Source: Candidatus Bathyarchaeota archaeon (GTDB lineage Archaea; Thermoproteota; Bathyarchaeia; Bathyarchaeales; Bathycorpusculaceae). Taken from it: a stretch of 64,000 nt of DNA. Made by a program: the position numbers and the translations under genes. Of this stretch, positions 4,986 through 63,943 are shown piece by piece. Each line of letters opens with the position of its first letter. Within the stretch, counting starts at the first letter, position 1. The stretch spans positions 768,001 through 832,000 of the forward strand of contig CAWHVC010000003.1 of assembly GCA_963832745.1 (NCBI GenBank), written 5' to 3'. A model generated the notes under the pieces. That model was not told where the DNA came from, ran no database searches, and saw only the letters and a list, made by a program, of their open reading frames with translations.

Positions 4986-5163
4986 CGCTTAAACCCCAAT
5001 TTTTAAGCTAAACTTTAGTTCAAGTTCTGCTATAGTTTAATTTGACGTTGAAAGCTCGGCAAACTTTCGTTTCTTTAAAAGAAACTCATTTAAGACTGAT
5101 GTAGCCGTATGCCTTGAACAAAGTGTGTGAAAAGACCAGTGGCAAATAAAGGAGGCTACCAAG

Positions 5164-8100
5164 TTAAGCAAACAAAACTTCGCCGTTCCGGCAGGCCAAG
5201 AAAACAACGTTACAGTAGCCCAGCCTCCGTTAACTGCTGACGAAATTTTAGGCAAACCTGTACAGGAATTATTCAACCGTTTAGATTCTTCAATCAGTGG
5301 TTTAAGCTCCGAGGAAGCTGAAAACCGCCTTGAAGTTTATGGCCGAAACGAGCTTGCAAAAAAGCACAAACGTTCCGTAATCATCGAGTTTCTGATGAAC
5401 TTCAAAAGCCCACTTGTAATCATTTTAATGGTTGCAGGGTTAATCTCAGGCATCCTTGGCGAATTGCCCAACATGATTATTATTTTCACTATTGTCTTTC
5501 TTAGCGTTATTTTAGACTTCTATCAAGAGTCTAAAGCTGAAAACGCTGCAGAAATGCTAAAAGAAGCCGTAACAACGACTGCCACTGTAATCCGCGACGG
5601 CACAAAACAGGAAGTCAAGCTTCACGATGTTGTACCCGGCGACATAGTTTACCTTTCAGCCGGCGACATAACCCCCGCTGATGCACGAGTAATCTCTGCT
5701 AAAGACCTTTTCATTAACCAATCAGCCTTAACAGGTGAATCTTTCCCTGTAGAAAAAACTCCTTCACTGGTAAAAGTTAAAGACCCCACAATTACGGAAT
5801 GGAATAATTACCTTTTTATGGGAACATCAGTTGTCAGCGGTACATCAACTGCGTTGGTTGTTAGAACAGGCAGCTTAACAGAGTATGGTAAAATCGCCAA
5901 AAAACTTGTCGAGAAAGCTCCTGAAACCGAATTTGAAAAGGGCATCAAAAACTTTGGTTTCTTCATCATGCAGATAACCATACTTTTGGTTCTTTTCGTT
6001 TTCATGGTTAACGCTTTACTTCACCCTGACACACAAGGCATCCTAACCGCACTGCTTTTTGCGGTCGCACTTGCGGTCGGTTTGACTCCTGAACTCTTGC
6101 CAATGATTATCACCGTTAACCTGTCCCGAGGTGGTATTGCCATGTCCAAGAAAGGCGTCATCGTTAAACGTTTAGCTTCCATTGAAAACTTTGGCAGTAT
6201 GAACGTTTTATGCACAGATAAGACAGGGACGCTTACAGAAAACAGGATTACCCTTGTCCTGCACGTGGACCCAGAAGGCAACGATGATGATAAAGTGTTG
6301 CTGTACAGTTATCTTAACAGTTTCTACCAAACAGGCCTAAAAAGTCCTCTTGACGAAGCTATCCTTGTGCACGAAAAAATCGACACTGCAGGCTACCAAA
6401 AAATAGATGAGGTACCTTTCGATTTTGTCCGCAGGCGGGTAAGTGTTGTCGTAGAAAATGACCGACAAAGGTTCTTCATAGGTAAAGGCGCGCCAGAGGA
6501 AATTCTTAAAGTCTCATCATTCTGTGAAATAGGCGGTTTACCTGTTGACTTAACTGAGGAACTTCGTGAAAAGGCTGAACAGAAATATTACGATTTAAGT
6601 TCTGAAGGTTTCCGTGTTTTAGGTGTAGCTTACAAGAAGCTTAAGGAAGAAAAAACTGTTTACTCTGTTAATGATGAACGCGACATGGTGTTCATGGGGT
6701 TTGTGGCTTTTCTTGACCCTCCAAAAGAAACCGCCAAAGAATCTCTAAGACTATTAAGCAACGCTGGTATCGAACTTAAAATTTTGACTGGCGATAATGA
6801 GCAAGTTGCACGAAAAACCTGCGAGTCACTTGGGTTTGAAGTTAAGGGCGTTGCGTTAGGCAATGAAATAGCCTTAATGTCTGATGAAGCCTTAGCCCGC
6901 ATTGTTGAAGAGGACAATGTTTTCGCCCGTGTTACACCTGTTCAGAAAGACCGCATCATTACGCTTTTGAAAAGCAATGGTCATGTGGTCGGCTTCATGG
7001 GTGACGGCATTAACGATGCGCCTTCCTTGAAAAGCTCCGACGTAGGTATCTCAGTTAATAACGCTGTGGATGTTGCCAAAGAATCCGCTGACATTATTCT
7101 ACTTAAAAATGACCTTACCGTGCTAGCTGAGGGTGTGCTGGAGGGCCGAAAAACTTTCGGTAACACCATGAAGTATGTTATGATGGGTGTAAGCAGCAAC
7201 TTTGGAAACATGTTCAGTGTTGCAGGTGCTTCGTTGATTCTGCCGTTTTTAGGCTTTGACTTTTTGCCCATGCTTCCAATTCAGATTCTTCTCAATAACT
7301 TGCTTTACGATATTTCCCAGTCAGCAATAACAACTGATAATGTTGACGCCGAATATGTTGAGAAACCTAAACGTTGGGACATCGGTTACATCCGTAGTTT
7401 CATGATTTCGCTTGGTCCAGTCAGTTCACTGTTTGACTTCTTAACATTCTTCATAATGATGTTCTTCTTCCTACCATATGTAGCGTTGAGCCAGCAACAG
7501 CCACTGTTCCAAACTGCTTGGTTCTTGGAGTCCCTAATAACGCAAACGTTTATCATTTTTGCTATTCGTACACGCAAGTCGCCGTTTTGGAAGAGCAAAC
7601 CGGGAAAATACTTGGTCTTCAGTAGTCTTGCTATTATCGCAATAGCTGTGATTATTCCATTTACTACGTTTGGTGATACTTACTTCCTGTTTATACCGCC
7701 ACCGCCAGAATTCTTCGCTGTACTCGCCGGTTTAGTATTAGCTTACTTGGTGCTTGCTGAAGTGGTTAAACGTTGGTTCTACAAACGTAACTCTTATCGT
7801 GTTGAACAGGCGTTGGTGCCCAAGAAACGCGGTTTGTACCTGAGCAGACGTGCACGGCTTGTACAGGACGTTATCGCAGTGATTTGCCTAAGACTTGAAG
7901 ACGAAATCTCAATTGACTCCTTAATCGAAGACTTGACAAGAAGCCTCAATTACCCAATTAACCCTGACGAAGTGGCTCAAAACCTGCATCATCTTCGCCG
8001 CACAGGCTTAATCAGCATCGACTGGCACAATCGAACAATTAAACGCCAAGGCACAGTTAGAGAATACGTAACAGAGTACGTGGAAACTCAGGCGATTTGG

Positions 8101-8202
8101 CCAATGGTGTATGAGGATTGGGTGCGAATCAACAAGGCAATCTTTGACCGTTATGGCGAAGTTAACACTGAATACTCTGCATTGCTTACACAACAAAGAT
8201 AA
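5164..8202 (+). CDS. mgtA: Mg2+-transporting P-type ATPase (type IIIB) with C-terminal extension; start inferred at TTA 5164 (ORF track starts at 5395)
   Basis: TGES, PELLP, DKTGT, KGAPEE, GDGIND, SSNFGNMFS, LLNNLLYD; N-domain GLSSEEAENRLEVYGRNEL is in frame upstream of 5395. Confidence 0.92.
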   Translation, partial: LSKQNFAVPAGQENNVTVAQPPLTADEILGKPVQELFNRLDSSISGLSSEEAENRLEVYGRNELAKKHKRSVIIEFLMNFKSPLVIILMVAGLISGILGELPNMIIIFTIVFLSVILDFYQESKAENAAEMLKEAVTTTATVIRDGTKQEVKLHDVVPGDIVYLSAGDITPADARVISAKDLFINQSALTGESFPVEKTPSLVKVKDPTITEWNNYLFMGTSVVSGTSTALVVRTGSLTEYGKIAKKLVEKAPETEFEKGIKNFGFFIMQITILLVLFVFMVNALLHPDTQGILTALLFAVALAVGLTPELLPMIITVNLSRGGIAMSKKGVIVKRLASIENFGSMNVLCTDKTGTLTENRITLVLHVDPEGNDDDKVLLYSYLNSFYQTGLKSPLDEAILVHEKIDTAGYQKIDEVPFDFVRRRVSVVVENDRQRFFIGKGAPEEILKVSSFCEIGGLPVDLTEELREKAEQKYYDLSSEGFRVLGVAYKKLKEEKTVYSVNDERDMVFMGFVAFLDPPKETAKESLRLLSNAGIELKILTGDNEQVARKTCESLGFEVKGVALGNEIALMSDEALARIVEEDNVFARVTPVQKDRIITLLKSNGHVVGFMGDGINDAPSLKSSDVGISVNNAVDVAKESADIILLKNDLTVLAEGVLEGRKTFGNTMKYVMMGVSSNFGNMFSVAGASLILPFLGFDFLPMLPIQILLNNLLYDISQSAITTDNVDAEYVEKPKRWDIGYIRSFMISLGPVSSLFDFLTFFIMMFFFLPYVALSQQQPLFQTAWFLESLITQTFIIFAIRTRKSPFWKSKPGKYLVFSSLAIIAIAVIIPFTTFGDTYFLFIPPPPEFFAVLAGLVLAYLVLAEVVKRWFYKRNSYRVEQALVPKKRGLYLSRRARLVQDVIAVICLRLEDEISIDSLIEDLTRSLNYPINPDEVAQNLHHLRRTGLISIDWHNRTIKRQGTVREYVTEYVETQAIWPMVYEDWVRINKAIFDRYGEVNTEYSALLTQQR

Positions 8203-41697: not shown

Positions 41698-41783
41698 GCC
41701 TGAACTCCACCGTATTATTTCACTTTTGTTTCGATAAGTATAAACTTATCATTCTGAATAAAATGGTTAAAAGGTGAAAGTTT

Positions 41784-42356
41784 ACGGTAAGATGTGAAGT
41801 TTGCGGGCGTAAAATTCACAATGACCCAATTCGGGCAAATATTGAAGGCGCAAAATTAACCGTCTGTGCTGAATGTGCCAAACATGGCAAAATCATTTAT
41901 CCAGAAGAGGAAAATCGTGCACCTAAATCACCCTTCCTAACCATTGCATCAGGTTCCACTTCAGCCTCAGTAGCAAAACCCAAGAGGCAACCTCAAATGA
42001 TGCAGAGAAAACGCAACCTTGTCGCAAAGGTAGAATTCACTCAAGAATTAATCGAAGACTACGCCACCCTAATCCGCGTTACAAGAGAAAAACTTGGTTA
42101 CACCCATGAGGACCTTGGCTTAAAAATCAGCGAAAGAGCATCAGTACTAAAACATATTGAACTAGGCAAAATGGAGCCAAATAACCTTCTTGCCAGCAAG
42201 CTTGAACGCGCACTAAAAATCAAGCTGCTGGTCCCCATAGAAGAAGAAAAACCGACCCCGATTGCTTCAACTAAAAATCAAGAGATGACTTTGGGTGATC
42301 TTATCGAAATTGACAGTAACGACACGGAGGAACCCAAAGAACGAAAGCAATCATAG
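41784..42356 (+). CDS. mbf1: archaeal multiprotein bridging factor MBF1 (Zn ribbon + HTH); start inferred at ACG 41784
   Basis: RCEVCG...IEGAKLTVCAECAKHG is in frame upstream of ORF 41997; HTH and TLGD motif follow. Confidence 0.9.
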   Translation, partial: TVRCEVCGRKIHNDPIRANIEGAKLTVCAECAKHGKIIYPEEENRAPKSPFLTIASGSTSASVAKPKRQPQMMQRKRNLVAKVEFTQELIEDYATLIRVTREKLGYTHEDLGLKISERASVLKHIELGKMEPNNLLASKLERALKIKLLVPIEEEKPTPIASTKNQEMTLGDLIEIDSNDTEEPKERKQS

Positions 42357-43612
42357 CTCAAAGACGCCTAAACCGTGAAGAATCAAGCCTTGAAGAATTA
42401 AAGGCACTTGCAGAGTCAGCAGGATACACAGTTGTTGGCACCCTAGAGCAAACAAGACCGCCTGATTCACGATACCAAATAGGTGCAGGAAAAGTTGAAG
42501 AACTCGCCAACATGGTAAAAGAAACAGGCGCAACCAAAATCATTTTTGACAACACTTTACGTACAATACAAAACTATAATTTAGCTAAAGCCACAAGAGT
42601 CGAAGTCATCGACCGTTTTCAACTTATCCTTGAAATCTTTACACACCGCGCAACAACCACAGAGGCTCAACTGCAAATCCAGTTGGCAACTCTTAAAAAC
42701 GAGCTTAAACATGCCCGAGAAAAAGTGCGCTTATCCAAAGGCACCGAACAACCAGGTTTTATGGGTTTAGGCGCTTACGAAGCAGACGTTTACCGAGACG
42801 CCATCAAACTGCAAGTACAAACCAACTTGAAAAAATTGGCGGCAATCCGAACAAAACGCGTTTTGCAACGTGAAAGAAGAATAGAACTCGGTTTCATTTC
42901 AATTTCACTTGCAGGCTACACAAGCGCAGGTAAAAGCACCTTATTTAATGCTTTAACGGAGGAGACCGCAAGAGTTGAAAAATCCCTATTCACTACTTTA
43001 TCGACCCAAACGCGTATTGTAGAGTTTTCTAACCGCAAATTCCTCTTAACCGACACCGTCGGCTTCATTGACCGCTTGCCAATTTCACTTATTGAAGCTT
43101 TCCATTCAACATTGGAAGAAACCATTTACTCTGACTTAATCGTCATAGTCCTTGACCTTAAAGAGCCGTTGGAGTTAATTGAAAAGAAAATCCGCGTCTG
43201 CCATGACACAATCAACCGTTTAGGAGCAGGCGGCATCCCACAAATTACAGCCTTAAACAAGGTTGACAGGCTAAGCCCTGAAGAGACACAACAAAAACTT
43301 GAAGCCTTAAAAGAAAAAATCCTCAACCCAATACTAATTTCAGCAAAAAAACGTACAAACCTAGATGAGTTAAAACGGCAGATTGTACGTATGCTGGAAA
43401 ATTATGTGCAAGGAAGCTTTGCTGTTCCATTGAAGGGCGAGTCAATGCCGTTTATTTCGTGGGTTCATGAAAAAGCTGAAGTTAAAAAAGAAGAATTCTT
43501 AGGCGACCGTGTACAGGTTGAATTTGAAGCTAACCCACAAGTTGCTGAACAAATAAGAAGAAAAGTGGAAAAACTCAATGGAAAATTCACCCAACCAGTT
43601 AATGGCCAATAA
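42341..43612 (+). CDS. hflX: GTPase HflX; start inferred at ACG 42341
   Basis: KAIIAQ...LEELKALAESAGY...YQIGAGKVEE is in frame upstream of ORF 42512; GYTSAGKST, DTVGF, NKVD. Confidence 0.93.
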   Translation, partial: TKAIIAQRRLNREESSLEELKALAESAGYTVVGTLEQTRPPDSRYQIGAGKVEELANMVKETGATKIIFDNTLRTIQNYNLAKATRVEVIDRFQLILEIFTHRATTTEAQLQIQLATLKNELKHAREKVRLSKGTEQPGFMGLGAYEADVYRDAIKLQVQTNLKKLAAIRTKRVLQRERRIELGFISISLAGYTSAGKSTLFNALTEETARVEKSLFTTLSTQTRIVEFSNRKFLLTDTVGFIDRLPISLIEAFHSTLEETIYSDLIVIVLDLKEPLELIEKKIRVCHDTINRLGAGGIPQITALNKVDRLSPEETQQKLEALKEKILNPILISAKKRTNLDELKRQIVRMLENYVQGSFAVPLKGESMPFISWVHEKAEVKKEEFLGDRVQVEFEANPQVAEQIRRKVEKLNGKFTQPVNGQ

Positions 43613-48694: not shown

Positions 48695-48772
48695 TGGTGG
48701 GCCGAGCCGGATTCGGACCGGCGACCTTTGGCTCGTAAAGCCAACGTCCTAACCAGGCTAGACGATCGGCCC
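48695..48772 (-). tRNA. tRNA-Val (TAC), CCA encoded
   Basis: acceptor GGGCCGA/TCGGCCC, anticodon arm ttggc-tt-TAC-ga-gccaa, T arm gccgg-TCCGAAT-ccggc. Confidence 0.95.
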
Positions 48773-48930
48773 ACATTTACCTGTTGCCGTTTGATTAAGA
48801 CAACGTTTTTGTTTTTAAGGTTGTCTGTAGGATTGTTTGGATACAGATATAAATTCGTATTTGTATAGGTCAAACAAAACCTGCACGAACCACAAGCGTC
48901 AGGTAAATTGATGGTTAAAGGTGAATCTGG

Positions 48931-50503: not shown

Positions 50504-50507
50504 TAGG

Positions 50508-50905: not shown

Positions 50906-51000
50906 TTTGGAGCCTCTTGACTGTTTTCAAAACACGGACTATTAACTTTTGGGAAGACGCAAAAATAAGCTTAATCATTGAATAACGCGCTTCAACGATT

Positions 51001-51732: not shown

Positions 51733-51737
51733 CTTTC

Positions 51738-52290: not shown

Positions 52291-52475
52291 TCAAGTACCA
52301 TACGGTGTTAAATACTGACAATAACTAAATAATATTTTCGAGTTTTTCGCTTGCATAGTATTCAATAAATCAGACAATAACGAAATAGTAGAGTTGAATC
52401 ATTTGAAGTGTTGTAAAATCGAAGTTTTTAAGAGCTTAACAAGCATTAATTCCAAGCAAGGGCACGTATGATACA

Positions 52476-52655
52476 ATGGACAAGTTACCCTACTTGAGTT
52501 TGACGGCGACCAGGCAGCATTAATTGAACCTTCTAATTCTAAAGATTGCCACCTGTCAGAACACTGCGTTATAGTTTTCTACAACTCGGTCATTCAAAGG
52601 CTAAAGCAAGATCAAATGCTTGAAAAAAATTTACGAAATCAAGTCCGTGCTTCAG
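52476..52655 (+). pseudogene. 5' fragment resembling a nucleoside phosphorylase-family gene
   Basis: LLEFDGDQAALIEP....LSEHCVIVFYNSVI resembles the N-terminus of uridine phosphorylase-like proteins; frameshifted and truncated. Confidence 0.4.
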
Positions 52656-52951
52656 ATGACCAGATTTTCAAAGCTGACGAAAAGGTTTCGCGGGTTTTTG
52701 AGTACGAAGCTGTTGAGGCGGGCTCGTACGTTCTGGATGCGCATTACCGCATCGTGGTTAACGACGTTTCAATTCAATAAAATAGATGACATAATAAAAG
52801 TAAGATAAGATAGCGGAAGTCTGCCGCGCAACCCCCCCAACCAATTGTTTTTAAAAGAAGCTCTGCTAACTTTTTTCAGTTTGTGGCAGTTTGCACAACC
52901 AGCCTGCAGTTCAAGTTAAGTTTAGAAAGCAATAATCAGCAAGCAGCATGA

Positions 52952-53002
52952 CCTGTTGGTTGTTGTGCTAAGGGGGTCTGTGGCAACAACTTCTAAACAA
53001 AA
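52952..53002 (-). repeat. dispersed repeat family 3 (hairpin) copy
   Basis: gttgttg-N18-caacaac hairpin; reverse complement matches 39816-39864. Confidence 0.75.
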
Positions 53003-53087
53003 AAACAAGCAGGCAATTTATAGGAAGGCTTAAGAATAAAGCTTAACCATGAATTGACAATCGCATTCAACGGGAATTGACACAAAA

Positions 53088-53899
53088 ATGAACGTATGTG
53101 TTATTGGTCTTGGACAAATCGGTTTTCCAGTTGCAAAATACATTGCCGCTAAAGGTTTTGACGTTTACGGTTTTGACATTAACCCAGCCGCGGTTGAACA
53201 CGGCATCCAAAACGGAAAATTCAAAGCAACCACAGAGTGGAACCAAATCCCAAAAGCCGACGCTTACATAATCTGTGTCACAACAAGCCAAGTCAACAAT
53301 CAAGCTGAATTGACTGCGGTTTTTGAGGTCTGCAAAAAAGTTGCTGAAAAAGCTGACTCAAACACTCTGGTTGCTATTGAAAGCACTATTTTGCCTGGAA
53401 CTTCAAAAAAGATTTTCCAAGAAATCTTTAATGACAAAGTACAGCTTGTTCATGCCCCGCACCGTTACTGGGCGGACCAAGAAGACAAATACGGCGTAAA
53501 CCAAGTTCGTGTAATCGGCGGCGTTAACCAACAAAGCCTTGATGCAGGCATGAAATTCTATAAAGACCAACTTGGCATTCCAATGCACACTGTCTCCACG
53601 GTTGAAGTTGCGGAAATGTGCAAAATCATCGAAAACAGTCACCGTTACCTGCAAATCGCTTTTGCAGAAGACCTGAAAATGATGTGCAGCCGTATAGGCA
53701 TGAACTTTGATGAGTTGCGGGGAGCTATGAATACCAAATGGAACGTTGATTTGCCTGAGGCACGCGATGGCATTGGTAGACATTGCTTGCCAAAAGACAT
53801 ACGTTATGTTACTTCTTTGACTCCAAGCATCCTGCTGATGCAGCGATGGATGCTGACAAACAGTACCGTGAATGGTTAGCTAAACAGCCAAAGAAGTAG
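53088..53899 (+). CDS. short UDP-sugar dehydrogenase family protein, frameshift near 53835
   Basis: IGLGQIG, CVTT, ESTILPGT, AEMCKIIENS.R, GIGRHCLPKD; the shifted frame ends DAAMDADKQYREWLAKQPKK. Confidence 0.82.
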
Positions 53900-53974
53900 T
53901 GATAAGTGTTTAGTCTTCTTTAGAACAACACCTCTTCTACCCCTTTTGAAAGCCTTGTTTTTTGCTTCTTTTTT

Positions 53975-54038
53975 CATTTAGAGCTTGTAACGCTTGCAGG
54001 CGGCGTAAAAGAAAGTCGGTAAGCGTCAATAAGCGTCA
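53975..54038 (+). repeat. dispersed repeat family 2 copy
   Basis: aagtcggt-aagcgtcaat-aagcgtca 10-bp units; similar to 19518-19581. Confidence 0.65.
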
Positions 54039-54141
54039 GCTAAAACCGGTTCACGGGGCAGTCATGTGTTGACTTTAACAGCCAAGTTTCTGTAAAGATA
54101 AACCTTTAATGCCAAACACTTCCTTTCCTACTTTAACACGT

Positions 54142-55177
54142 ATGTCCGACCACGTCTGGTTAGACACTGTTACACCTAAAATCAGCATAGCGATTAACAG
54201 TTTACTACCTATCTTACATAACAAAGGCTATTCTACGCTCGTTACAGCTAAAAGGCAAACTCAAACAACTGACATGCTCGATGCGCTTAAAAGTGTCCTA
54301 TGAAATCGTCGGTGAATACGGAACTACCCTAAAAGAAAAATTCGTTGCCGAGCAAAAACGTACGTTAGAGTTTTTGGACCTTTTTGATAGAATCGGCTAC
54401 CCTGAAGTGCTCTGGACACACGGGGATGTTTCAGCCATCCGTACAGCGTTTGGGCTAAGAATCCCTGTGGTTTACGCTAACGACACCGTTTTCGCTTACG
54501 CAGTCGCCAAACTGGCTTGCCCCTTAGTTGATTATCTTGTAACGCCCAAATGTTTTGGCAAGTCATGGAGCAGATTCGGCATCTCCAAAAACCGCATAGT
54601 CCAGTATGATGGGCTCGAAGAGTTGGCGTATGTTGGTTCAGAATTTGAAAAACCAGCCTTCCTTGAAGAATTGATTGGTAAGAAGAAACCGGTGATTCTG
54701 TTCCGTGACGCAGAATACCAAGCCGTCTACTGCAAAGACGTTAAGGTAGAGTCAGAAAAATTATTACAGGAACTTGCCAAGTTGGGCACAGTTGTTTGCC
54801 TGCCACGGTATGAGTGGGAACGGGCTAAACTTAAGGAGATTCCTAACGTTTGGGTTTCACCCAAGCCAGTCTTAACGGCACAGCTTATGCCTTACATTGA
54901 TTTGATGGTTGGCAGCGGCGGAACAGCCTGCCGAGAAACAGCACTCTGCGGAATCCCAACAATAAACTTCCACTTCTGGGACGTCCAAGCACGTTACCTG
55001 CGCAAGAAAGGCTTCCCAATCCAGATTATCCGTAACACCAACCGCATAATTGCAGTTGCAAAGAAACTGTTATCTAACCCACAAAAAACGGACACCAAAC
55101 AAACTCTAAGCAAGCTTGAATCTCCGATACCTGTCTGGGAAAAATATGTTGAAGAATGTATGAAGTCAAAGCTTTGA
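54142..55177 (+). CDS. DUF354-family GT-B-like protein, frameshift at AAAA 54289-54292
   Basis: VWLDTVTPK ... LDALK/VSYEIVGEYG..LKEK, YDGLEE, GSGGTACRETALCGIPT. Confidence 0.8.
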
Positions 55178-56059
55178 AGCGAATTTTCCCGCTTTTAAAT
55201 AGCCCTTCATGTAATAGAAACGGACCAGCGGATGAATAACTGCCACTGTTGCCTCCCTTGTCTTATACGCAACAAACAGGCCGGTGAAGGGCGAGATTAT
55301 GAAACGGTAAATTATTCCAAACTTTGTTATTGGCGGTGGTTGATGAGTTTCTTGCTCGATTCGGCTCCAGATTTCGTGCACTTGAGTGCCATACCAGTAT
55401 TGATGGCTTAATTCATGCTTTAGGTCGCTTCGCATGTGAACTGACTGTATGTTGTAGTCGACTATCCAACCGTACCCTGCCTTGTTAAGTCTGTAAGCCA
55501 AGGTTGTATCTACACCAGCGTTAACTTTAATTTTTGGGAAACCGCCAATTTTGCGTACAACCTCAGTCTTGTAAATAGTATTATCAAGTGTGCTTCCTAA
55601 AGTGAAAGCAGCCTTCTGCCTACCACGCAGCCAAGCGGCTAAAGCTGCTTCTCCACGGTATTTGCGTGCTACATACTTCTGGAGGGCTCTAACTCCGGGC
55701 GGTTTGTCTGCAAAACGCATGCCAGAAGCGGCGCCAACTGATTCGTGCTCAAGATAAGCTGGAACCTTGCTCCACCAGTCTTTAGATAAAAGTAAATCCT
55801 GCTCAAAACTAACAAAATATTCGGTTTCCACGTTTTTTAAGGCGGTGTTTGCGCCGTCGCTGATGCCTTTTCCTTCATTAAAGATTACTGTCCAACCGTG
55901 GGCTACAGCTATTTCACGTGTGTTGTCTGTGCTTTGGTCATCAACAATCAAACGTTTATTCACACATTCGGGCGGAATAACAGCGTTGATACGTTTCAAG
56001 ACGATCGGTAGCGTTTTTGCGCCGTTTTTTGTCCACATTACTAAGTCGACTTTGCCCAT
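55166..56059 (-). CDS. glycosyltransferase family 2
   Basis: VMWTKN, IVDDQSTDNT, FEQD, IGGFP; start at ATG 56059. Confidence 0.88.
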   Translation of the reverse strand: MGKVDLVMWTKNGAKTLPIVLKRINAVIPPECVNKRLIVDDQSTDNTREIAVAHGWTVIFNEGKGISDGANTALKNVETEYFVSFEQDLLLSKDWWSKVPAYLEHESVGAASGMRFADKPPGVRALQKYVARKYRGEAALAAWLRGRQKAAFTLGSTLDNTIYKTEVVRKIGGFPKIKVNAGVDTTLAYRLNKAGYGWIVDYNIQSVHMRSDLKHELSHQYWYGTQVHEIWSRIEQETHQPPPITKFGIIYRFIISPFTGLFVAYKTREATVAVIHPLVRFYYMKGYLKAGKFASKL

Positions 56060-56128
56060 CAAGAGTAACCCCAGTACTTTTAATAAGACGGTTAATAAAA
56101 ATGCTATCACTAACCAAAGGGGAACCTG

Positions 56129-57112
56129 ATGCAGCAAATTGAGCCTAAAGTCAGCGTGGTTGTTCTCAACTATAACGGCGCAAACTATGTCAGAGGGTGC
56201 CTTGAATCACTATTCAAAAATGACTACGGTAACTTTGAGGTAATTTTTGTTGATAACAATTCCCCTGACAAAAGCGTCGAGATAGCCAAAAAACTGTTTA
56301 AAAATGAGCGTCGCTTAAAAATTATTGAAAATAAAGAAAACTATGGCTTCTCAATAGGAAACAACATAGGCTTCAAAGCTTCAGACGCAAAATATGTGCT
56401 CTCATTAAATAATGACACTAAAGTCCAAGAAAATTTTATCAGAACAATGGTTAACGTGGCTGAAGCAGACGAGAAAGTTGGAAGTGTAGGCTGCAAAATT
56501 GTCCAGTTAGATGGCGTTATCAGTTACGGACCAAAATACATGAACTACGGCTTTATCACTAGTGCTTTAAACAGGCAGTCATACGAAAAGGAAACCTGCA
56601 ACATAGCTAACTGTGGATGTGCTACTCTTTTCAGAAAATCTTTACTGGATAAAATCGGCGGTTTTGACCCTTACTTATGGACCGACTGGGAAGACCACGA
56701 TTTAGGTTACCGAATAAACATAGCAGGCTACAAATGTCTCTACACGCCTAAGACGACAGTGCTTCATCTTGGCGGCGGAAACTATCTGGGAATGAGTCCA
56801 GAAAGAAGAAGCCGAATAATAAGAAACAAACTCCTTGGACACTACAAGAACTATGAAACCAAAAATCTGTTTGCACGGTTTCCACTGGTGACACTTAAAA
56901 CTTTAACGTGGGATAGTTTGCCTTTACTTAAGGAAGGAAAAATTTCAGCCGTGATTAAGGCAGTGGCTGGATTTTATGTTCTTTTAGAGCCAATTTCAAA
57001 AGAAAGAGCAAAAATTCAAAAGCAAAGAGTTGTCTCGGATAAAGAGATTTTTAAGAAGTGCCGTGTGCCTGAAAGACAATCCTTCCTCTTCAAAACTCTA
57101 AAGAAACTTTAG
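56129..57112 (+). CDS. glycosyltransferase family 2
   Basis: VSVVVLNYNG, VDNNSPD, NYGFSIGNN.G, LNNDT, GGFD, EDHDL. Confidence 0.92.
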   Translation: MQQIEPKVSVVVLNYNGANYVRGCLESLFKNDYGNFEVIFVDNNSPDKSVEIAKKLFKNERRLKIIENKENYGFSIGNNIGFKASDAKYVLSLNNDTKVQENFIRTMVNVAEADEKVGSVGCKIVQLDGVISYGPKYMNYGFITSALNRQSYEKETCNIANCGCATLFRKSLLDKIGGFDPYLWTDWEDHDLGYRINIAGYKCLYTPKTTVLHLGGGNYLGMSPERRSRIIRNKLLGHYKNYETKNLFARFPLVTLKTLTWDSLPLLKEGKISAVIKAVAGFYVLLEPISKERAKIQKQRVVSDKEIFKKCRVPERQSFLFKTLKKL

Positions 57113-57114
57113 GG

Positions 57115-58095
57115 TTAAGCTATTTCTTTTCCTTTAAACCCAGTAAAGAGGCTTACAAAGTAACCGTAAGAGACGGCGATGCCACATGGTGAATAATACA
57201 AGAACGCAACCAGTCCCCATGTTCGGTGCCTTTTAGACCGCCAAACATGATAACACAAGTTAAACAACACATAAGCAACCGCAAAAACGGTTGCAGTCAA
57301 CCATGGAACAAGGGCGAAAGCAAAATTTACCAGCCAAAGCACGATTATTATGGGCAGGGCAAAATAGTAAAGGATTCTAAACAGGTGCGCTTTTGAACCA
57401 GCCCTTATCAATTCTCGATACAGGAAAGGTTGACTGGAGTAACACCATTTTAGCCTGCCACGATAATCCCGCAGTATAGTGCTGAAGCTTGATTTTTTTT
57501 CTTTCTTGAGGTGCAAGCAGGGGGTTGAACCGTCAAACTTGATTTGGTACCCAAAGTTTCGTGCTCTTGAGAAAAAGTCGGTGTCCTCGTTAACCTTGAG
57601 TTTCTCGTTAAATGTGCCGGCTTTCTGGAATACTTCTCGTTTTATTGCGGTAAAACCCATGCCGCCCAGCACGGTTTCAGACTGCATTATCCGCTCGTAC
57701 AGCGAAGGGGTCTCTGTAAAATACGGAAAACCAGCGATTGCGGCTGAACCGTCAATCATTTTTAGAACGCGAGTTAACGCTTCTGGGTCAGGCGCGATTA
57801 CGTCTGAATCCCAAAAGAAAATCACGTTGCCTTCCATATGGGTGATGCACAGGTTTCTTGCATTGGAAATGTAACCGTTTGATTCAGCTTTTAGGAGGTC
57901 AAAACCGAAATATTCACTGCCGTATTGTTCTTTCCAGCTTAAAAGTTTCTCGTAGGTTCCATCGTTGCTTTCGTCTATGATTACTATTTTGGTTTTGTTT
58001 TTTGGGTAGGCTTGAGTGTAAATTGAGGATAGGACTCTGTTAATGTAAAGAAGCCGGTTTCTTGTAGGTATAGCGATTGTAATGAGTCCATCCAA
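57115..58095 (-). CDS. glycosyltransferase family 2 with C-terminal TMs
   Basis: IAIPTRNR, IDESNDGT, ARN, WDSD, NEDTDF. Confidence 0.9.
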   Translation of the reverse strand: MDGLITIAIPTRNRLLYINRVLSSIYTQAYPKNKTKIVIIDESNDGTYEKLLSWKEQYGSEYFGFDLLKAESNGYISNARNLCITHMEGNVIFFWDSDVIAPDPEALTRVLKMIDGSAAIAGFPYFTETPSLYERIMQSETVLGGMGFTAIKREVFQKAGTFNEKLKVNEDTDFFSRARNFGYQIKFDGSTPCLHLKKEKKSSFSTILRDYRGRLKWCYSSQPFLYRELIRAGSKAHLFRILYYFALPIIIVLWLVNFAFALVPWLTATVFAVAYVLFNLCYHVWRSKRHRTWGLVAFLYYSPCGIAVSYGYFVSLFTGFKGKEIA

Positions 58096-58144
58096 TTAGT
58101 ATCACTCCAGTTAAATCCTCGTAATTGGTATTTTTAGATTTAGT

Positions 58145-59089
58145 TTAGGATTGATTTGTTAAGGGTTTCTTTAGAAAACAAATTTGCTGATTTCGTTTTC
58201 GGTATATTTTTGAAAACTCTCTTAGTCCTGCAATATTACCTTTTACATAAGAAGGAACAAGGCTTAACTTCTTGTTTCTGGCAAATTTGTACAGTTTTCT
58301 GCTCACCTTTTTTGGCTGCTTTAAGATAAACCGTAGCAGTATCTTTGCGGGCTGATTCTTTATTTTGTAATAGTATTGATTGCGCTCTAACAAGTAAGTC
58401 TTGAACGGTGAATCAGTCACAGCAGTAGCTGAACCATAATGATAAACTACAGCAGAAGGCACAAACATGCATTTCCAACCTGCCTTCTTTAACCGTAAAG
58501 CCACATCCACGTCCTCGTAGAAAGCAAAAAAGTCAGGGTCAAAACCGCCTATTTGCTCAATAGCACTTCGACGATAAAGAACCGACGCTGAACAGGCACC
58601 TAACAATTCTTTGGGCTTACTATATTGGCCTGTATCTTTTTCTTGAACGCCTAACTGGTAAGCGTCGCCTTCCCAATTCAAAGCTAAACCAACCGTGTCA
58701 ATTGTCTGGGGATTTTGCATCGAAAGAATTTTGGGTTGACAAGAACCTATGCGTTGGTTGGATTCAGCCATTTTTATTAATTCGCTTAACCAATTTTGGT
58801 CCACTGTTGTGTCGTTGTTTAAAGCTATAACATACTTGCTTTTTGAATTCTCTATACCAGCGTTCATACCAACGCTATAACCAAGATTTTTTGGCAACTG
58901 GACAATTTTGACTTCTGGAAAATTTTTTTGAACAAAACCCACTGACTCATCAACTGAGCCGTTATCGACCAAAACAACTTCGAAATCATGGTACCTCTGG
59001 TTTTTAAGTGAGTTTAGGCAACCTGTGAGATGCTTTTTCCCGTTCCAGTTAACAATAATTATAGTTACCATGGGTTTGTTCAAAGGCAT
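58145..59089 (-). CDS. glycosyltransferase family 2
   Basis: IIVNWNG, VDNGSVD, LNNDT, GGFDPDFFAFYEDVD. Confidence 0.92.
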   Translation of the reverse strand: MPLNKPMVTIIIVNWNGKKHLTGCLNSLKNQRYHDFEVVLVDNGSVDESVGFVQKNFPEVKIVQLPKNLGYSVGMNAGIENSKSKYVIALNNDTTVDQNWLSELIKMAESNQRIGSCQPKILSMQNPQTIDTVGLALNWEGDAYQLGVQEKDTGQYSKPKELLGACSASVLYRRSAIEQIGGFDPDFFAFYEDVDVALRLKKAGWKCMFVPSAVVYHYGSATAVTDSPFKTYLLERNQYYYKIKNQPAKILLRFILKQPKKVSRKLYKFARNKKLSLVPSYVKGNIAGLREFSKIYRKRNQQICFLKKPLTNQS

Positions 59090-59219
59090 CCCTTGTTTTA
59101 GTATAAGCTCGTAGTTATTTCATTTTCTATTTAACTGTTTATTAGCCTCAAAATTGGGTTTTCGTTAAACACATTATTTATTATCAAAGACAACGTTCAC
59201 TTATGGCAATTGAGATACC

Positions 59220-60698
59220 ATGATTAAACTTAGGCTTGACGTTGATTACCCTTACCCTTCAAGATACAAAAGTTTCGCTGTAACAGCCCTAGGAATAAAA
59301 AGGCCCGGCAGTGGCTACTTAAAATACGCTAAAATCATTGCCAAAATGGTTAACGAATCACAAAGAGACGTCAAAGCAGTCTGGTTCTTCACACCCTATA
59401 CAATCCCAGACAAAGAATTACTTGACCTGTTAACAACTGACAAGCATGAAGTCGGGTTACATGTAGCAACCAACCCGTACCGTGAAATGAACAACATAGA
59501 AAAAGCGACAGGTAGAAAACTGAATTATTACACGGTACACGGGACAGAGCGTTTGCTTGGAAGAATAATTTGGCACAGAAAATTAAGCCAGGCAAAAGTG
59601 CCCGTACCAGAAGATTTTCCGCTTCAATCCTACTATGTTTACCATCATCTTGGATTGGACGTGATAGCTCACACTTGCGCAGTGGAAGAAGCGGTAAAAC
59701 AAACAGAAGAGGCCATAACCAAAGGTGACGTTATACTAATTCACCCAGAATGGCTGTTTCAAAGAGGAAAACACAACCCCCGAGGACCATACTATGAACC
59801 ATTAAAGCGACTCTTAGGGGTCGATGTCGACCTAAACTATTTAGAGGTTAGAAAAAAAGGCCTAATTAAACTGGCAGAAATCGTAGACGTCTTTGCTTAC
59901 CTAAACAGGGTTAACCCAACAGAACGGTTTATTTCGAAAGTTAAAGACCGAGACGCTGACGCTTTCACATTTATTGAACGAACATGGTGCGACCCCCACA
60001 TTAACCCAGCCAGTTCATGGGTTAAAGAGCAAGATAACATTGCCCTGCTCAGCATCAGTACTTACCAAGAATGGTTTGAAAGAGTAGGCAAGAAAACCCG
60101 CAATATGATTCGGAAAGCAGAAAAAAGCGGTATAGAAACCAAAATTGTGGTGCCAGACGAAAAGTTTGCGGAGGGCATCTGGAAAATTTTCAATGAGACC
60201 CCGATTAGGCAAGGTCGAGCCTCACCGTATTATGGTATCTCGATAGAGAAGGTAAAGCAGGATATTTTGAACGATAGAGGCTTCACTTTTGTAGGAGCAT
60301 ACTTGGGGGATGAACTGGCAGGTTTTATCCAACTTGTACACGGCGACCAGTTAAGCATTATTACTCAGATTTTGGCGCTGCAAAAACACCAAGACAAAGC
60401 AGTAAACAATGCTACCGTTGCAAAGGCAGTCCAGTACTGTGCTGAACATGGCATAGCTAACTTGATGTACGGCAGAATGGAAAACCATCCGTCACTTGAC
60501 AAGTTCAAAGAAAGCAACGGCTTTATCAAATGTGACTTAAACAGGTACTACATACCCTTAACAACTAAAGGCAGTATTGCGATAAAACTGCGGTTACATC
60601 GTCCACTCAAAGACACAATGCCTGATAGCCTAAAAAAGAGGTTGTTTGGGGTTTATAGTTGGGTTAGCCGAACAAAAATGAAGATTAGAAGACGATAA
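59220..60698 (+). CDS. two-domain protein: polysaccharide-deacetylase-like N-terminus + GNAT/FemAB-like C-terminus
   Basis: LRLDVD, HEVGLH, TVHG, LIHP; then KKTRNMIRKAEKSG, GAYLGDELAG, SLDKFKESNGF. Confidence 0.65.
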   Translation: MIKLRLDVDYPYPSRYKSFAVTALGIKRPGSGYLKYAKIIAKMVNESQRDVKAVWFFTPYTIPDKELLDLLTTDKHEVGLHVATNPYREMNNIEKATGRKLNYYTVHGTERLLGRIIWHRKLSQAKVPVPEDFPLQSYYVYHHLGLDVIAHTCAVEEAVKQTEEAITKGDVILIHPEWLFQRGKHNPRGPYYEPLKRLLGVDVDLNYLEVRKKGLIKLAEIVDVFAYLNRVNPTERFISKVKDRDADAFTFIERTWCDPHINPASSWVKEQDNIALLSISTYQEWFERVGKKTRNMIRKAEKSGIETKIVVPDEKFAEGIWKIFNETPIRQGRASPYYGISIEKVKQDILNDRGFTFVGAYLGDELAGFIQLVHGDQLSIITQILALQKHQDKAVNNATVAKAVQYCAEHGIANLMYGRMENHPSLDKFKESNGFIKCDLNRYYIPLTTKGSIAIKLRLHRPLKDTMPDSLKKRLFGVYSWVSRTKMKIRRR

Positions 60699-60702
60699 AA
60701 AA

Positions 60703-60972
60703 TTAAAGAAGCAGAACGGCAAGAAGGTCATTTAGGTCTTTCTTGGTTTTTATGCCTCTGAAAATGATTTTGCCGCTGGCGTAGAAACGAAAAGAATATT
60801 GTTGGAAAACCAAGTCGTAAATCATTCCGGCAACTTGGCTTTTCAAAGTGGCTTTTTTCAATATATTTTGTAGTGCTTGGTCTTTTTTGTCAAATTTTAG
60901 GACGACTATGACGTCGCTTTCAGCGCCGCAAGTGCCTTCGATTCTTGAGACATAGTCGCCTACCGTTGACAT
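60703..60972 (-). CDS. small hypothetical protein at the end of the Fe-S operon
   Basis: 89 aa, start overlaps the sufS stop, GTCG and FRFYASGKIIFRG. Confidence 0.7.
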   Translation of the reverse strand: MSTVGDYVSRIEGTCGAESDVIVVLKFDKKDQALQNILKKATLKSQVAGMIYDLVFQQYSFRFYASGKIIFRGIKTKKDLNDLLAVLLL

Positions 60973-62210
60973 TAAAGCGCCTGGAACTCCTTTAGCACTT
61001 CAAGGAAACGGTTTACCTCTTCCTTAGTATTATAGAGATAGAAGCTAGCGCGGGCGCTGGATTGCAACTGGAAGATTTGGTGCAGTGGTTGTGCACAGTG
61101 ATATCCGCTACGTATGGCTATTCCGTAGCTGTCGCATAAGAGGGCAACATCATGTGATGATAAGCCTACAACGCTGAAAGGTATTATCCCACATTTGCTT
61201 GAAAGCTCTGTTGGACCGTGAACGGTTATTTTGCTCATGTCTTTCATGCCTTTCATTGCCTGTTTTGTGAGGGCTTTTTCGTGAGCTAAAATATTTTCCA
61301 TTTCAACTTGTTGAAGGTATTTTATGGCTGCTGCTAACCCGATTGCACCCGATATGTTCGGTGTGCCTGCTTCAAACTTCCAAGGGGATTCATTCCAGCT
61401 TATGTCGCATTGCTGACTTTGGAAATTGTAAGCTACGTCTTTTATCATTTCTCCGCCGCCTTGGAATGGCCCCATCTTTTCAAGCAACGTTTTCTTGCCA
61501 TATAAGACGCCGATTCCTGTTGGAGCAAGCATTTTGTGTCCCGAGAAAGCCAAAAAGTCAGCGTCAAGATCTTGAACGTCAACTTTCATGTGCGGAACGG
61601 ATTGAGCGCCGTCTACAAGCATTAAAGCGCCGTTATCATGTGCAATTTTTGATAAGCGTTTTATGTCGTTTACTACGCCTGTAACGTTTGAAACTTGGCT
61701 TATGCAGGTGATTTTTGTTTTCGGTGTAATTTTGCTTTCAAAATCTTTGATGTCTAAAACACCCTCGGATGTGACGTTTGCATAGTTTATTTTGAAGCCA
61801 CGGATTTTAGCGGTAATTTCCCATGGAACAATGTTGCTGTGATGCTCCATTAGGGAAACGAGGACTTCGTCACCCTTTTTGAGGTTGTTTAGTCCCCAAG
61901 AGTAAGCGGCAAGGTTAATTGCTTCAGTTGTTCCTCTAACAAAAACTATTTCGGAAGACTCTTTTGCGTTTATGAATTTTGCAACTTGTTCACGGCTTTT
62001 CTCATACATTTCAGTAGCTTCTAAAGAGAGCGTGTGTACTCCTCGGTGAACGTTAGCGTTATTGTTTTCGTAATAGTCGGTTATGGCTTGTATGACTTGT
62101 CGGGGTTTTTGTGTTGTTGCGGCGTTGTCAAAGTAGATGAGGGGGTTATTGTTTACTTTACGTTTTAGAATTGGAAAATCGTCGCGAATCCGAGTTAGAT
62201 CTATTGGGAT
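60972..62210 (-). CDS. sufS: group II cysteine desulfurase; start inferred at ATC 62210 (or ATA 62204)
   Basis: IRDDFPIL..IYFDNAATTQKP...NVHRG is in frame upstream of ORF start 62009; MEHHSN, DGAQ, SGHK, RSGYHCA. Confidence 0.93.
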   Translation of the reverse strand: MPIDLTRIRDDFPILKRKVNNNPLIYFDNAATTQKPRQVIQAITDYYENNNANVHRGVHTLSLEATEMYEKSREQVAKFINAKESSEIVFVRGTTEAINLAAYSWGLNNLKKGDEVLVSLMEHHSNIVPWEITAKIRGFKINYANVTSEGVLDIKDFESKITPKTKITCISQVSNVTGVVNDIKRLSKIAHDNGALMLVDGAQSVPHMKVDVQDLDADFLAFSGHKMLAPTGIGVLYGKKTLLEKMGPFQGGGEMIKDVAYNFQSQQCDISWNESPWKFEAGTPNISGAIGLAAAIKYLQQVEMENILAHEKALTKQAMKGMKDMSKITVHGPTELSSKCGIIPFSVVGLSSHDVALLCDSYGIAIRSGYHCAQPLHQIFQLQSSARASFYLYNTKEEVNRFLEVLKEFQAL

Positions 62211-62716
62211 TTTTCTTCCTCCGGCTTTAGCCTCTTAGACAGCGTCTTGGCTAATTCTTCCTCTTCTAAGGCTTGCTTTTCTTCAAAAGTGTTTTCCTTA
62301 GGCATCCATGCTGGTTCAGCGCCTTTTTTGGCATCAAAATATTTTCTGATTGCACGTTTCAACGCGCCGACGGCGAGAACTCCGCAGTGGAATTTAACGC
62401 TTGGCAAGCCGCCGATTGCGTCGGTAACTTTTTTCCAAGTAATGTCATTCCAAGCAACTTCAAGAGTTAAACCTTTAACCATTTCAGTAACTATGCTTGA
62501 GGTTGCAATGTTAGCGGCACAACCGTAGCTTTCGAATTGTGCTTTTTCAATAATTTGAGTTTCCTCGTTAATTTTTAGGTAAAAAGTTATCATGTCTCCG
62601 CATGCAGGGTTGCCAGCGACTGCTACGACTGTGGCGTCATCCATTTTTCCAAGGTTTTTGGGGTTGCGGAATAAATCCATAACTTTCGGGTTATAAGGTA
62701 AAGGTATACGCGACGT
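62201..62716 (-). CDS. iscU: Fe-S scaffold IscU/NifU-N; start inferred at ACG 62716
   Basis: YNPKVMDLFRNPKNLG, GNPACGD, GCAANIA, KFHC. Confidence 0.92.
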   Translation of the reverse strand, partial: TSRIPLPYNPKVMDLFRNPKNLGKMDDATVVAVAGNPACGDMITFYLKINEETQIIEKAQFESYGCAANIATSSIVTEMVKGLTLEVAWNDITWKKVTDAIGGLPSVKFHCGVLAVGALKRAIRKYFDAKKGAEPAWMPKENTFEEKQALEEEELAKTLSKRLKPEEEKSQ

Positions 62717-62719
62717 TTT

Positions 62720-63943
62720 TTACTCCACTCCTGTTGAACCAACTATCCGTCTAATACGATTAACAGCTGATGGTAATACTTCCAAAACGTAAGCTATATC
62801 TTCTTCTGTAAGATAACGCGTCGTCTTCATAAGCACGCTACCGTGAGCTTCTTCAAATCTGCGTCCAATAGCTACCAACACGTGACTGGGCTGGAGCAGT
62901 CTTCGGCTGCACGCACTTCCGCTTGAAATGTAGACACCTTTGAGGCTCAACTCGATTGTTAGAGCCTCACCTTCTGCACGTAGGAAACTGATGTTTGCAT
63001 TGTCGGGGGAACGCTTTTCGCCTTTTGGACCGTTAAACCGTAAATCAGGCAGTTCAGTGAATATGCCATCAACCAGTTTGTCTCTTAAAGTGCGCATTTT
63101 TGTAGTGTTTGCCTCAAAATCTTCAAAAGCCAACTCGGAGGCTTTAATGAAGCCAACAATTAAGGGCGTGTTTTCTACGCCTGGCCAAAGTTTTTGTGTA
63201 CCGATTTGTCCTTCGATTATGCGGTCAAGGTTTATGCCTTCTTTTAGATACATGGCACCCATTCCTCGGGGACCCTGGATTTTGTAGCTGCTTACTGTTG
63301 CCAAGTCAACGTTTAAGTCTTGTACATTGAAGGGTACTCTACCGTAGGCGTCGGTTGCGTCTGTATGGAAAAGCGTGTGAGGGTTTTTATCTTTGACAAT
63401 TTTAACTGCCTCTTTGATGTCTTGAACTGTGCCTAATTCATTGTTTACTGTTGCGACGCTTACAAGGATGGTTTCTTTGTCGATTGCTTCTTTGAGTTTT
63501 TCCATGTTCAAGAAGCCTTCATGGTCAACAGGGATTTTGGTTATGGTGAAACCGAATTTTTGCATCATCTCCGCAACTTGCATAACATTTACTGGTTCAA
63601 TTTCTGAGATGACAATTTTTTTGCCTTTATCTTTCTGGGCAAAACATGACCCCATTACTGCAAGGTTGTTTGCTTCGGTTTCGCCTGGGGTGAAGGTGAT
63701 TTCTTCAAGGATTTTGGCGCCCATGGTTTTGCTGATTTTTTGGAAGCAGTTCATGATTACTTCGAAGGCTTCCCAGCCTGGTTTGTGGGTGAGAGTTGGG
63801 TTGCCGTAAGCGGTCTTGTTAAAGTACGGAAGCATTGCGTCTACGACTTCTTGGGGAACGATGCTTGAGTTTTCGTTGTCTAAGTAGACCTCGTGTGTGA
63901 TGCCTTCGTGAAGTTTAAGAAGTTCTTTTACGTTTTCAACCAT
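62720..63943 (-). CDS. IscS/NifS-like (group I) protein with degenerate PLP-site motifs
   Basis: YGNP, TEANN, NNELGT, SSYK..GPRG.G, SSGSACS, PSHVL.AIG. Confidence 0.85.
   Translation of the reverse strand: MVENVKELLKLHEGITHEVYLDNENSSIVPQEVVDAMLPYFNKTAYGNPTLTHKPGWEAFEVIMNCFQKISKTMGAKILEEITFTPGETEANNLAVMGSCFAQKDKGKKIVISEIEPVNVMQVAEMMQKFGFTITKIPVDHEGFLNMEKLKEAIDKETILVSVATVNNELGTVQDIKEAVKIVKDKNPHTLFHTDATDAYGRVPFNVQDLNVDLATVSSYKIQGPRGMGAMYLKEGINLDRIIEGQIGTQKLWPGVENTPLIVGFIKASELAFEDFEANTTKMRTLRDKLVDGIFTELPDLRFNGPKGEKRSPDNANISFLRAEGEALTIELSLKGVYISSGSACSRRLLQPSHVLVAIGRRFEEAHGSVLMKTTRYLTEEDIAYVLEVLPSAVNRIRRIVGSTGVE

Follow-up and report, generated by a model that had tools for sequence, protein, structure and literature searches.

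Five genes in a 64,000-nucleotide window of an archaeal genome (the window being the whole stretch of DNA analysed here, G000:C3:768001-832000) appear to begin at codons other than ATG, GTG or TTG. The genes are mgtA, mbf1, hflX, sufS and iscU, and a comparison with related genomes suggests that the near-cognate codons at their starts are genuine and inherited, with the ordinary initiator Met-tRNA most likely decoding them, though less efficiently. The ACG of hflX, which lies inside the 3' end of mbf1, is ancient; throughout one order of Bathyarchaeia it is fixed within the strict layout GGAGG-N10-ACG-N10-TAG. The genome studied (G000, 3.02 Mb in five contigs) is placed by the titles of its nearest public records in Bathyarchaeia, genus Candidatus Bathycorpusculum.

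Genes were picked across the window by comparing open reading frames (ORFs) that begin at the first ATG, GTG or TTG with the frames running from stop to stop, and the Pfam residue numbers given below are those of the stop-to-stop frames. An earlier reading, made from the sequence alone, had noticed that in these five genes no ATG, GTG or TTG lies in frame between the upstream stop and the conserved N-terminus, and the frame comparison bears this out for each of them. Moreover, the family domain starts before the first canonical codon in all five genes, in mbf1 by a zinc-ribbon match that is below the Pfam cut-off. The Shine-Dalgarno (SD) motifs and spacings that the sequence-only reading had listed were exact for all five when the window was read again, and the canonical genes that it had used for comparison, at 11046, 24817, 48931 and 18554, have the spacing it claimed. 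The SD spacings of the five genes match those of canonical genes in the window.

Orthologous loci were taken from 30 related genomes; 18 of these belong to the genus of G000, and the other 12 represent 11 further families of the order. The alignment of ortholog starts, which had been proposed as a check, showed that in four of the five genes the codon recurs where other relatives carry ATG, GTG or TTG. The near-cognate codon is homologous to the canonical start of orthologues in hflX, sufS, iscU and mgtA (for mgtA, one GTG orthologue only), and likewise in purF, a gene outside the window that is described below; in mbf1 the homologous codon is GTA, with ACG one codon upstream. Ortholog alignment, Pfam matches and SD positions agree with the proposal that the natural N-termini start at near-cognate codons preceded by an SD motif. 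The related claim that random base error does not explain the pattern stood for mgtA, mbf1, hflX and sufS, whose codons recur in independent assemblies, but not for iscU, whose ACG is found in G000 only. To judge from these alignments, the conserved near-cognate starts of four of the five genes are inherited features, more than chance or error.

In hflX, sufS and iscU the start overlaps the stop of the upstream gene or lies a few bases from it, the offset of that stop being +13 relative to the hflX start, +7 relative to the ATC of sufS and -6 relative to the ACG of iscU. These three genes have the layout of termination-reinitiation, with stop and start adjacent and an SD motif within the upstream ORF. 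This layout was not found for mgtA, mbf1 and purF, which stand alone behind an SD-like motif.

The gene hflX (42341..43612, + strand, from ACG 42341) is preceded by a GGAGG within the 3' end of mbf1 (42326..42330, +), 10 nt before the ACG, and it overlaps mbf1 by 16 nt, the mbf1 stop TAG being at 42354-42356. The hflX frame is open from 42320 and its first canonical ATG is found at 42512. The product has the domain order of an HflX GTPase (GTP-bdg_N at residues 21-107, GTP-bdg_M at 110-187 and MMR_HSR1 at 195-314); the first ATG corresponds to residue 65, so that the N-terminal domain begins 44 residues earlier. In the first set of relatives ACG was found in 19 of the 20 parsed loci and ATT in one, the hflX N-terminus being absent from the locus or not parsed in 9 of the 29 loci of this set. 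Among 80 further loci from public genomes 78 have ACG, one has ATT (L096) and one has ATG (L170), the last with a classical ATGA overlap on the upstream stop. Further genomes inside the family and the order gave ACG in five of six cases and ACT in one (G074, L197). Beyond the order, both within its class and in further classes of the phylum, an ATG, TTG or GTG stands directly before the K/R-A/V-I/V motif.

The surroundings of this codon are conserved as well. GGAGG lies exactly 10 nt before the ACG in 57 of the 80 public loci, the rest having GGAG or GGGAG variants, and the upstream (mbf1) frame is open for at least 100 codons in 67 of the 80. The mbf1 TAG occupies positions +14 to +16 of the ACG in 76 of 79 loci examined. 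In these 76 loci the hflX frame 5' of the ACG is variable, stops occurring at 8 of the 10 codon positions before it, and from the ACG onward it reads T (75 loci), K (76), A (73), then I/V and I/L. Protein-type conservation starts exactly at the ACG and stops are tolerated just upstream of it; an in-frame stop is found immediately 5' of the codon in 10 of the 80 loci. At codon 3 all four Ala codons are used, whose bases in the frame of mbf1 encode Pro, Gln, Leu or Arg. Because Ala is kept while the mbf1-frame residue varies, the hflX frame is under selection from codon 3 at the latest, and starts at ATC, ATA or GTG 3-5 codons downstream are therefore excluded.

Standard gene callers were expected to mis-start these proteins, and public records of HflX are in keeping with this. 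Among the best 120 public HflX relatives the N-termini fall at five or more different codons: 50 lie beyond the Q-R-R motif, 54 at codon 6 and 11 at codons 4-5, and M-K-A at the conserved position is seen in 2 of the 120. A caller restricted to ATG, GTG and TTG would shorten HflX, SufS, MgtA and MBF1 by 57 to 77 residues, into their N-terminal domains, and would strip the catalytic cysteine from PurF.

Elsewhere in the phylum, hflX of G084 (L213) and G069 (L214) has TAAGGAGGG-N8-ATA right after an in-frame stop, and in G125 (L209) no canonical codon lies upstream of the conserved hflX motif. The gene may be prone to weak starts in general.

The gene sufS (60972..62210, - strand) would start at ATC 62210, which lies 7 nt after a GGAGG in the 3' end of iscU (62218..62222, -). 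Its frame is open from 62234 (-) and its first canonical ATG is at 62009, which corresponds to residue 76, 43 residues past the beginning of the Aminotran_5 domain (33-410). Two codons past the ATC, at 62204, there is an ATA that corresponds by homology to the GTG of relatives and shares bases with the iscU stop (ATAG). At this homologous codon 17 genomes of the genus have GTG in 8 cases, ATA in 8 (G011, which has an apparent frameshift near the locus, is counted among them) and CTA in one. The ATC two codons upstream, 7 nt after GGAGG, is conserved in the subclade of G000. In G002, G012, G010 and G001 the sufS frame opens only 5-6 codons before the ATA, and no canonical codon lies ahead of the I-R-x-D-F-P-I-L motif. 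Three genomes of other genera have ATG or GTG as the sufS start.

The gene iscU (62201..62716, -, from ACG 62716, next ATG at 62680) follows a class-V aminotransferase (NifS-like) gene, whose stop is the TAA at 62722-62720. The start region (62714..62726, -) reads GGAG at 62726-62723, this TAA, AAA and ACG at 62716-62714, which places the ACG 6 nt after GGAG, and the iscU frame is open from 62719 (-). NifU_N covers residues 9-131 and the ATG is residue 14, so that the domain starts 5 residues earlier. At the start position 17 of 20 loci have ATG, two have GTG and G000 alone has ACG. A look for sequencing runs found none of RNA and one of DNA, X1, a marsh metagenome in the form of contigs, which contains 0.07 of the words. 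Within the compared range of 43000-62900 (20 kb; the mbf1 and hflX starts are outside it) the X1 contigs are fragments of relatives, none from the G000 organism spanning the iscU start; one of them, which shows 31 differences in 214 bases, has GTG at this position. The iscU case is the weakest of the five, and its ACG may be a base error.

Outside the window, purF was the top match of an unbiased ortholog screen of G000 against the more distant congener G014. The catalytic N-terminal Cys of its product is preceded by ATA-GGC in G000 and by ACG-GGC in G014. At the codon two before this Cys, 18 genomes of the genus have ATA (12), ACG (2) or ATG (4). In G014, G002, G011 and G001 a stop stands one codon upstream, and only AAA, ATA or ACG, and GGC lie between this stop and the Cys. 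No canonical codon is found in frame 5' of the Cys in 10 of the 18 genomes, the first one lying 21-122 codons downstream. In other families of the order, where 5 of 7 loci could be parsed, purF uses a canonical codon, which is an ATG eight codons farther up or a different one. The gene is an independent and clean case of ATA and ACG replacing ATG at the start position within the genus.

The two remaining window genes have no overlapping upstream partner. The gene of the mgtA-like P-type cation ATPase (5164..8202, +, from TTA 5164) has an SD-like GGAGG at 5151..5155 (+), 8 nt before the TTA and kept in the four closest orthologous loci. The frame is open from 5131 and the first canonical ATG is at 5395, residue 89 of the frame; Cation_ATPase_N covers residues 42-106 and so begins 47 residues before that ATG. 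GGAGG-N8-TTA is found in 4 of the 5 closest orthologues (G000, G008, G017 and G006), and G018 has GTG at the codon; an in-frame TAG lies 4 codons upstream of the TTA in G017 and G006. About 70 nt 3' of the SD motif (window positions 5151-5230, +) there is a CCTCC inside A-Q-P-P codons, kept in 4 of the 5 closest orthologues, which could pair with the GGAGG and mask it. Among more distant mgtA-type ATPases, G011 (L070) has ATG before L-S-S-E-E-L-L and G010 (L066) has AAG at the aligned codon; the G010 gene has no canonical start ahead of the conserved domain.

In mbf1 (41784..42356, +, from ACG 41784) a GGTGA motif (41773..41777, +) lies 6 nt before the ACG, and the TGA within this motif is an in-frame stop, after which the mbf1 frame is open (from 41778). 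The GTA at 41787 is homologous to the start of relatives and the first canonical codon is at 41997, residue 74. The zinc-ribbon match, at residues 5-40, begins about 70 residues before that codon, and HTH_3 follows at 101-150. Two codons before the first zinc-ribbon Cys, 26 of 29 mbf1 loci have TTG (17), ATG (5) or GTG (4). ACG-GTA is found there only in G000 and its closest relative G008 (2 of 29), and G024 is ambiguous.

Just upstream of the mbf1 ACG, and in the same frame, there is an ATG at 41763, followed by GTT AAA AGG TGA (41763-41777). It is present in G000 and G008, both of which have no canonical mbf1 start, and absent from the other loci inspected. A mini-ORF, a site of readthrough and the remnant of a promoter are possible readings. 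Readthrough of the TGA at 41775, or a mini-ORF from this ATG, was considered and judged unlikely, since in relatives a TATA-like box occupies the place of the ATG.

The sequence-only reading had gone further and suggested relaxed start selection through altered initiation factors. On inspection this was not borne out, the genes for the initiator tRNA, aIF1 and the t6A modification looking ordinary. Aragorn, with introns allowed, found 47 tRNAs in G000, two of them with anticodon CAT, namely the initiator at C3:573685-573763 and a tRNA-Ile-like molecule at C2:443736-443810; no elongator tRNA-Met was detected by the same search of the whole genome. The single initiator-type tRNA has a CAU anticodon, an A1:U72 pair and a GGG/CCC anticodon stem, and the elongator tRNA-Thr(CGU) is normal. 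The aIF1 has a zinc knuckle and a basic, conservatively substituted loop 1 that reads K-F-G-R, the residues that matter in Pyrococcus abyssi being R31, Y32 and K34. TsaD/Kae1 and Sua5 are both present. A scripted search for the motif of the 16S 3' end gave no match. An odd tRNA-Gly, called at C3:70055-71823 with an 'intron' of 1.7 kb, is also in the Aragorn output.

All stop-to-stop ORFs of G000 were screened against 400 kb of G014, with the rRNA-region ORFs (C5 643-646 kb and the matching G014 stretch) dropped. In a loose version of the screen, covering 330 ortholog pairs, alignments reached at least 4 residues 5' of the first canonical codon in 53 cases for G000 and 54 for G014. Many of the G000 candidates with an extension of at least 6 residues turned out on inspection to be artefacts, such as fragments of genes, ORFs of the rRNA region, and the conserved 3' ends of upstream genes that had been read in a different frame. 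A strict version passed 4 of 263 pairs for G000 and 6 of 263 for G014; one of the four G000 matches is the second half of a frameshifted gene and another is a 110-residue ORF with 94% identity. Among the codons aligned to the first canonical start of the partner there was no clear enrichment of near-cognate codons, in a noisy tally. A genome-wide count of codons anchored on SD motifs gave a weak signal (ATG 134 against 54 and ACG 29 against 15 in control spacing), since SD-like motifs are for the most part found within genes. Going through the screen results by hand pointed to a few additional cases, with ATT at C4:258547, CTG at C5:379610, and ATC.

The gene at G000:C4:258547-260066 (L273) is split into two overlapping ORFs in G000 and also in G014 (C1:116789-118281). 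The split sites are about 30 nt apart, at a run of five A in G000 and at an extra T before a conserved S-C-P motif in G014. The first ORF in G000 has no ATG, GTG or TTG anywhere, and its ATT aligns with the ATG of G014. Within the window a sixth ORF without an early canonical start, 38653-39249, was rejected as a candidate on account of an apparent frameshift. At 38630-38700 (+) this membrane-protein ORF has an apparent 1-nt frameshift, either an assembly indel or a real one: an ATG-initiated frame reads M-W-A-L-A-I-V-D-P-T-I-Y-A-L-P-Y-I-I, which matches the N-terminus of the G014 orthologue, and the remainder follows in another frame.

Several observations weigh against taking these codons as start sites, or the genome as exceptional. 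The ACG of iscU is unique to the G000 assembly, an ATG is available 12 codons downstream, and the assembly has apparent frameshifts elsewhere. The TTA of mgtA mismatches the CAU anticodon at two positions and efficient initiation there would be unexpected, and no better start codon is conserved for this gene. The GTA of mbf1 mismatches the anticodon twice as well, which makes the neighbouring ACG the more plausible start. Public annotation puts the hflX start at ATC, ATA or GTG, 3-5 codons downstream, and such codons do occur in at least some loci. The C and G of the hflX ACG double as the first two positions of CGA, an Arg codon conserved in the mbf1 tail. Thr is encoded by ACG in 10.5% of cases genome-wide and hflX has ACG in 78 of 78, but the want of synonymous Thr variants is not independent proof because the mbf1 frame constrains the same bases, and we downgraded the synonymous-codon argument once this constraint was seen. 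Finally, a control pair from another class of the phylum (G041/G103) passed 11 of 221 and 12 of 221 ortholog pairs in the strict screen, against 4 and 6 of 263 for the Bathycorpusculum pair, so that genome-wide relaxed start selection was not upheld, although with a GC content of 55-59% and few stop codons this control is not well matched. Some of the control matches (L232-L271) look like promoter conservation and some like real anomalies; for example, in B103 131980-133048 a TAA stands directly before G-A-S-L-Q-A-Y-L-V-L-E-D-G, and no canonical start lies upstream of the conserved sequence.

Our preferred explanation remains that of inherited weak starts read by the ordinary initiator Met-tRNA. 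It draws on two studies, one in which toeprints of Pyrococcus abyssi 30S:mRNA:aIF1 complexes depended mainly on SD strength, with AUG contributing at most marginally and aIF1 said to disfavour non-AUG complexes (PMC6237735), and one that establishes for archaea that ribosomes reinitiate after termination where gene pairs overlap (Huber et al. 2019, PMC6728339); we favour weak starts because, according to these sources, complex formation is SD-led and reinitiation is established. In the stand-alone genes mgtA (TTA), mbf1 (ACG) and purF (ATA or ACG) an SD duplex 6-10 nt upstream would set the codon in the P site. In hflX (after mbf1), sufS (after iscU) and iscU (after the NifS-like gene) a terminating ribosome would already be at the start. 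We infer that Met-tRNAi initiates at these codons, that output is low and that coupling is important. The ACG of hflX probably keeps HflX low and tied to the translation of mbf1, and its weak start may have been selected as such over a long time; the other four window cases would be younger replacements of ATG or GTG within the genus.

This explanation is compatible with a lineage-wide relaxation of start selection, in Bathycorpusculum or in all Bathyarchaeia, through an altered aIF1, aIF2 or initiator-tRNA modification, with codons such as ACG, ATA, ATC, ATT and TTA in routine use in a few percent of genes, which we consider possible and rather doubtful. It would account for six genes with near-cognate starts and for repeated independent changes within one genus (ATG, ATA and ACG in purF, GTG and ATA in sufS, ATG to ACG in iscU), to which the ATT and CTG found by manual reading and the AAG of the G010 mgtA homologue, where G011 has ATG, may be added. 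Several of the replacements, moreover, change the third base to A (ATA, GTA, TTA), as might be expected if C34 of the initiator tRNA could pair with A as well. Against this reading stand the genome-wide data: the strict screen fell below its GC-richer, poorly matched control, the aligned-codon tally had no clear enrichment and the SD-anchored tally was weak. The initiator tRNA gene is canonical, loop 1 of aIF1 reads K-F-G-R and the t6A genes are present, and the window genes were chosen for their non-canonical starts in G000, so that counts across relatives are biased. It is possible, though rather doubtful, that ACG is a bona fide, selected start of hflX, fixed since the ancestor of the order, and that the repertoire of the genus has at the same time been broadened (ACG, ATA, ATC, ATT and perhaps TTA, AAG and CTG), with an effect on roughly one percent of genes or a few percent.

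Assembly errors or decaying genes, that is, mis-called bases, pseudogenes or truncated downstream starts, are a very improbable explanation of the whole. They would suit iscU, with its ACG in the G000 assembly only, the GTG of a relative's contig, the apparent frameshifts and the downstream ATG, but the codons of hflX, sufS, mgtA, mbf1 and purF are common to 2 to 78 independently assembled genomes. The N-terminal extensions are also conserved as protein and lie inside Pfam domains, and PurF needs its N-terminal Cys, which in 10 genomes lies 21 to 122 codons 5' of the first canonical codon. Programmed -1 frameshifting, or reinitiation without a defined start, by which ribosomes on mbf1 (or iscU) would slip into the hflX (or sufS) frame and yield a fusion protein, is highly improbable. 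The hflX frame is indeed -1 relative to mbf1 and the conservation boundary at the ACG would look identical; the overlap holds A-AAG, which we take to be a lysine slip motif, and the GGAGG lies 10 nt upstream, a distance at which such a motif promotes -1 shifts in bacterial dnaX too. In the mbf1 frame, however, the sequence of the overlap is A-CGA-AAG, which is no X-XXY-YYZ heptamer, and a CGA in the P site cannot re-pair on ACG. Outgroups and L170 have ATG, TTG or GTG at the exact codon and L096 has ATT there, and for purF, mgtA and mbf1 there is no gene upstream from which a ribosome could shift. RNA editing that restores the start, by C-to-U change of ACG to AUG or by A-to-I change of AUA, UUA or GUA to codons like AUG, UUG and GUG, seems to us the least probable of all. 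It is suggested by the codon pattern only (ACG in hflX, mbf1, iscU and purF; a third-position A in sufS, mgtA, mbf1 and purF), and two different chemistries would be required. To our knowledge no start-codon editing is known in archaeal mRNA, and our literature searches for it gave none either.

Among known systems, bacterial infC, which encodes IF3, has an unusual weak start, AUU, that is conserved over a large clade. The hflX case resembles it in that a weak start is kept clade-wide on the gene of a ribosome or translation factor, presumably with low or regulated output, and differs in that the organism is an archaeon, the codon is ACG, the gene is hflX and the start lies inside the 3' end of mbf1. 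HflX is not known to be a start-codon fidelity factor, nor to select against the codon at which its own gene starts, as in autoregulation of the infC type. In eukaryotes and viruses ACG initiation relies on scanning and Kozak context, and in organelles ACG is edited to AUG by factors of the pentatricopeptide repeat (PPR) type. These systems share with hflX an ACG at the initiator position of a conserved protein, whereas here the context is a prokaryote-type SD motif or a gene overlap.

The coupled overlapping pairs described by Huber et al. (PMC6728339) likewise have a start at or next to a stop with an SD motif in the upstream ORF, as in the ATAG of sufS, the iscU start 3 nt past the TAA and the ATGA of L170. 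Those pairs have canonical starts in ATGA or TGATG, whereas the starts found here are ACG, ATC and ATA, with an overlap of 16 nt for hflX. A neighbourhood of mbf1 and hflX has been reported for Crenarchaeota, where the genes are also close; neither an overlap nor a non-canonical hflX start is described in the excerpt at hand (PMC3062615). As regards NCBI table 11, the ATC and ATA of sufS and the ATA of purF fall within its accepted, rarely used set (ATA, ATC, ATT, CTG), and public hflX records that start with MA, MV or MLA (11 of the best 120) fit such codons 3-4 codons downstream; ACG, TTA and GTA, in contrast, are not start codons in that table. In the literature, supplementary tables excluded, we found no ACG or other non-table-11 start in archaea and no work on the start codons of Bathyarchaeia. 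Neither an order-wide conserved start from outside that table nor the exchange of such a codon with ATG and ATA within one genus came up in our literature searches.

ACG stands outside the starts of the prokaryotic code tables, and natural starts other than ATG, GTG and TTG have been regarded as rare curiosities. An ACG fixed across an order, together with the exchange of ATG, ATA and ACG within a genus, offers a natural system in which to study how much mismatch is tolerated by archaeal initiation, which is SD-led and eukaryote-like. If the start repertoire of the genus is truly broadened, this would point to a lineage-specific change in the codon-anticodon proofreading of the pre-initiation complex. 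In that case the ACG of hflX would serve to sense how stringent initiation is and would link a ribosome-rescue GTPase to MBF1.

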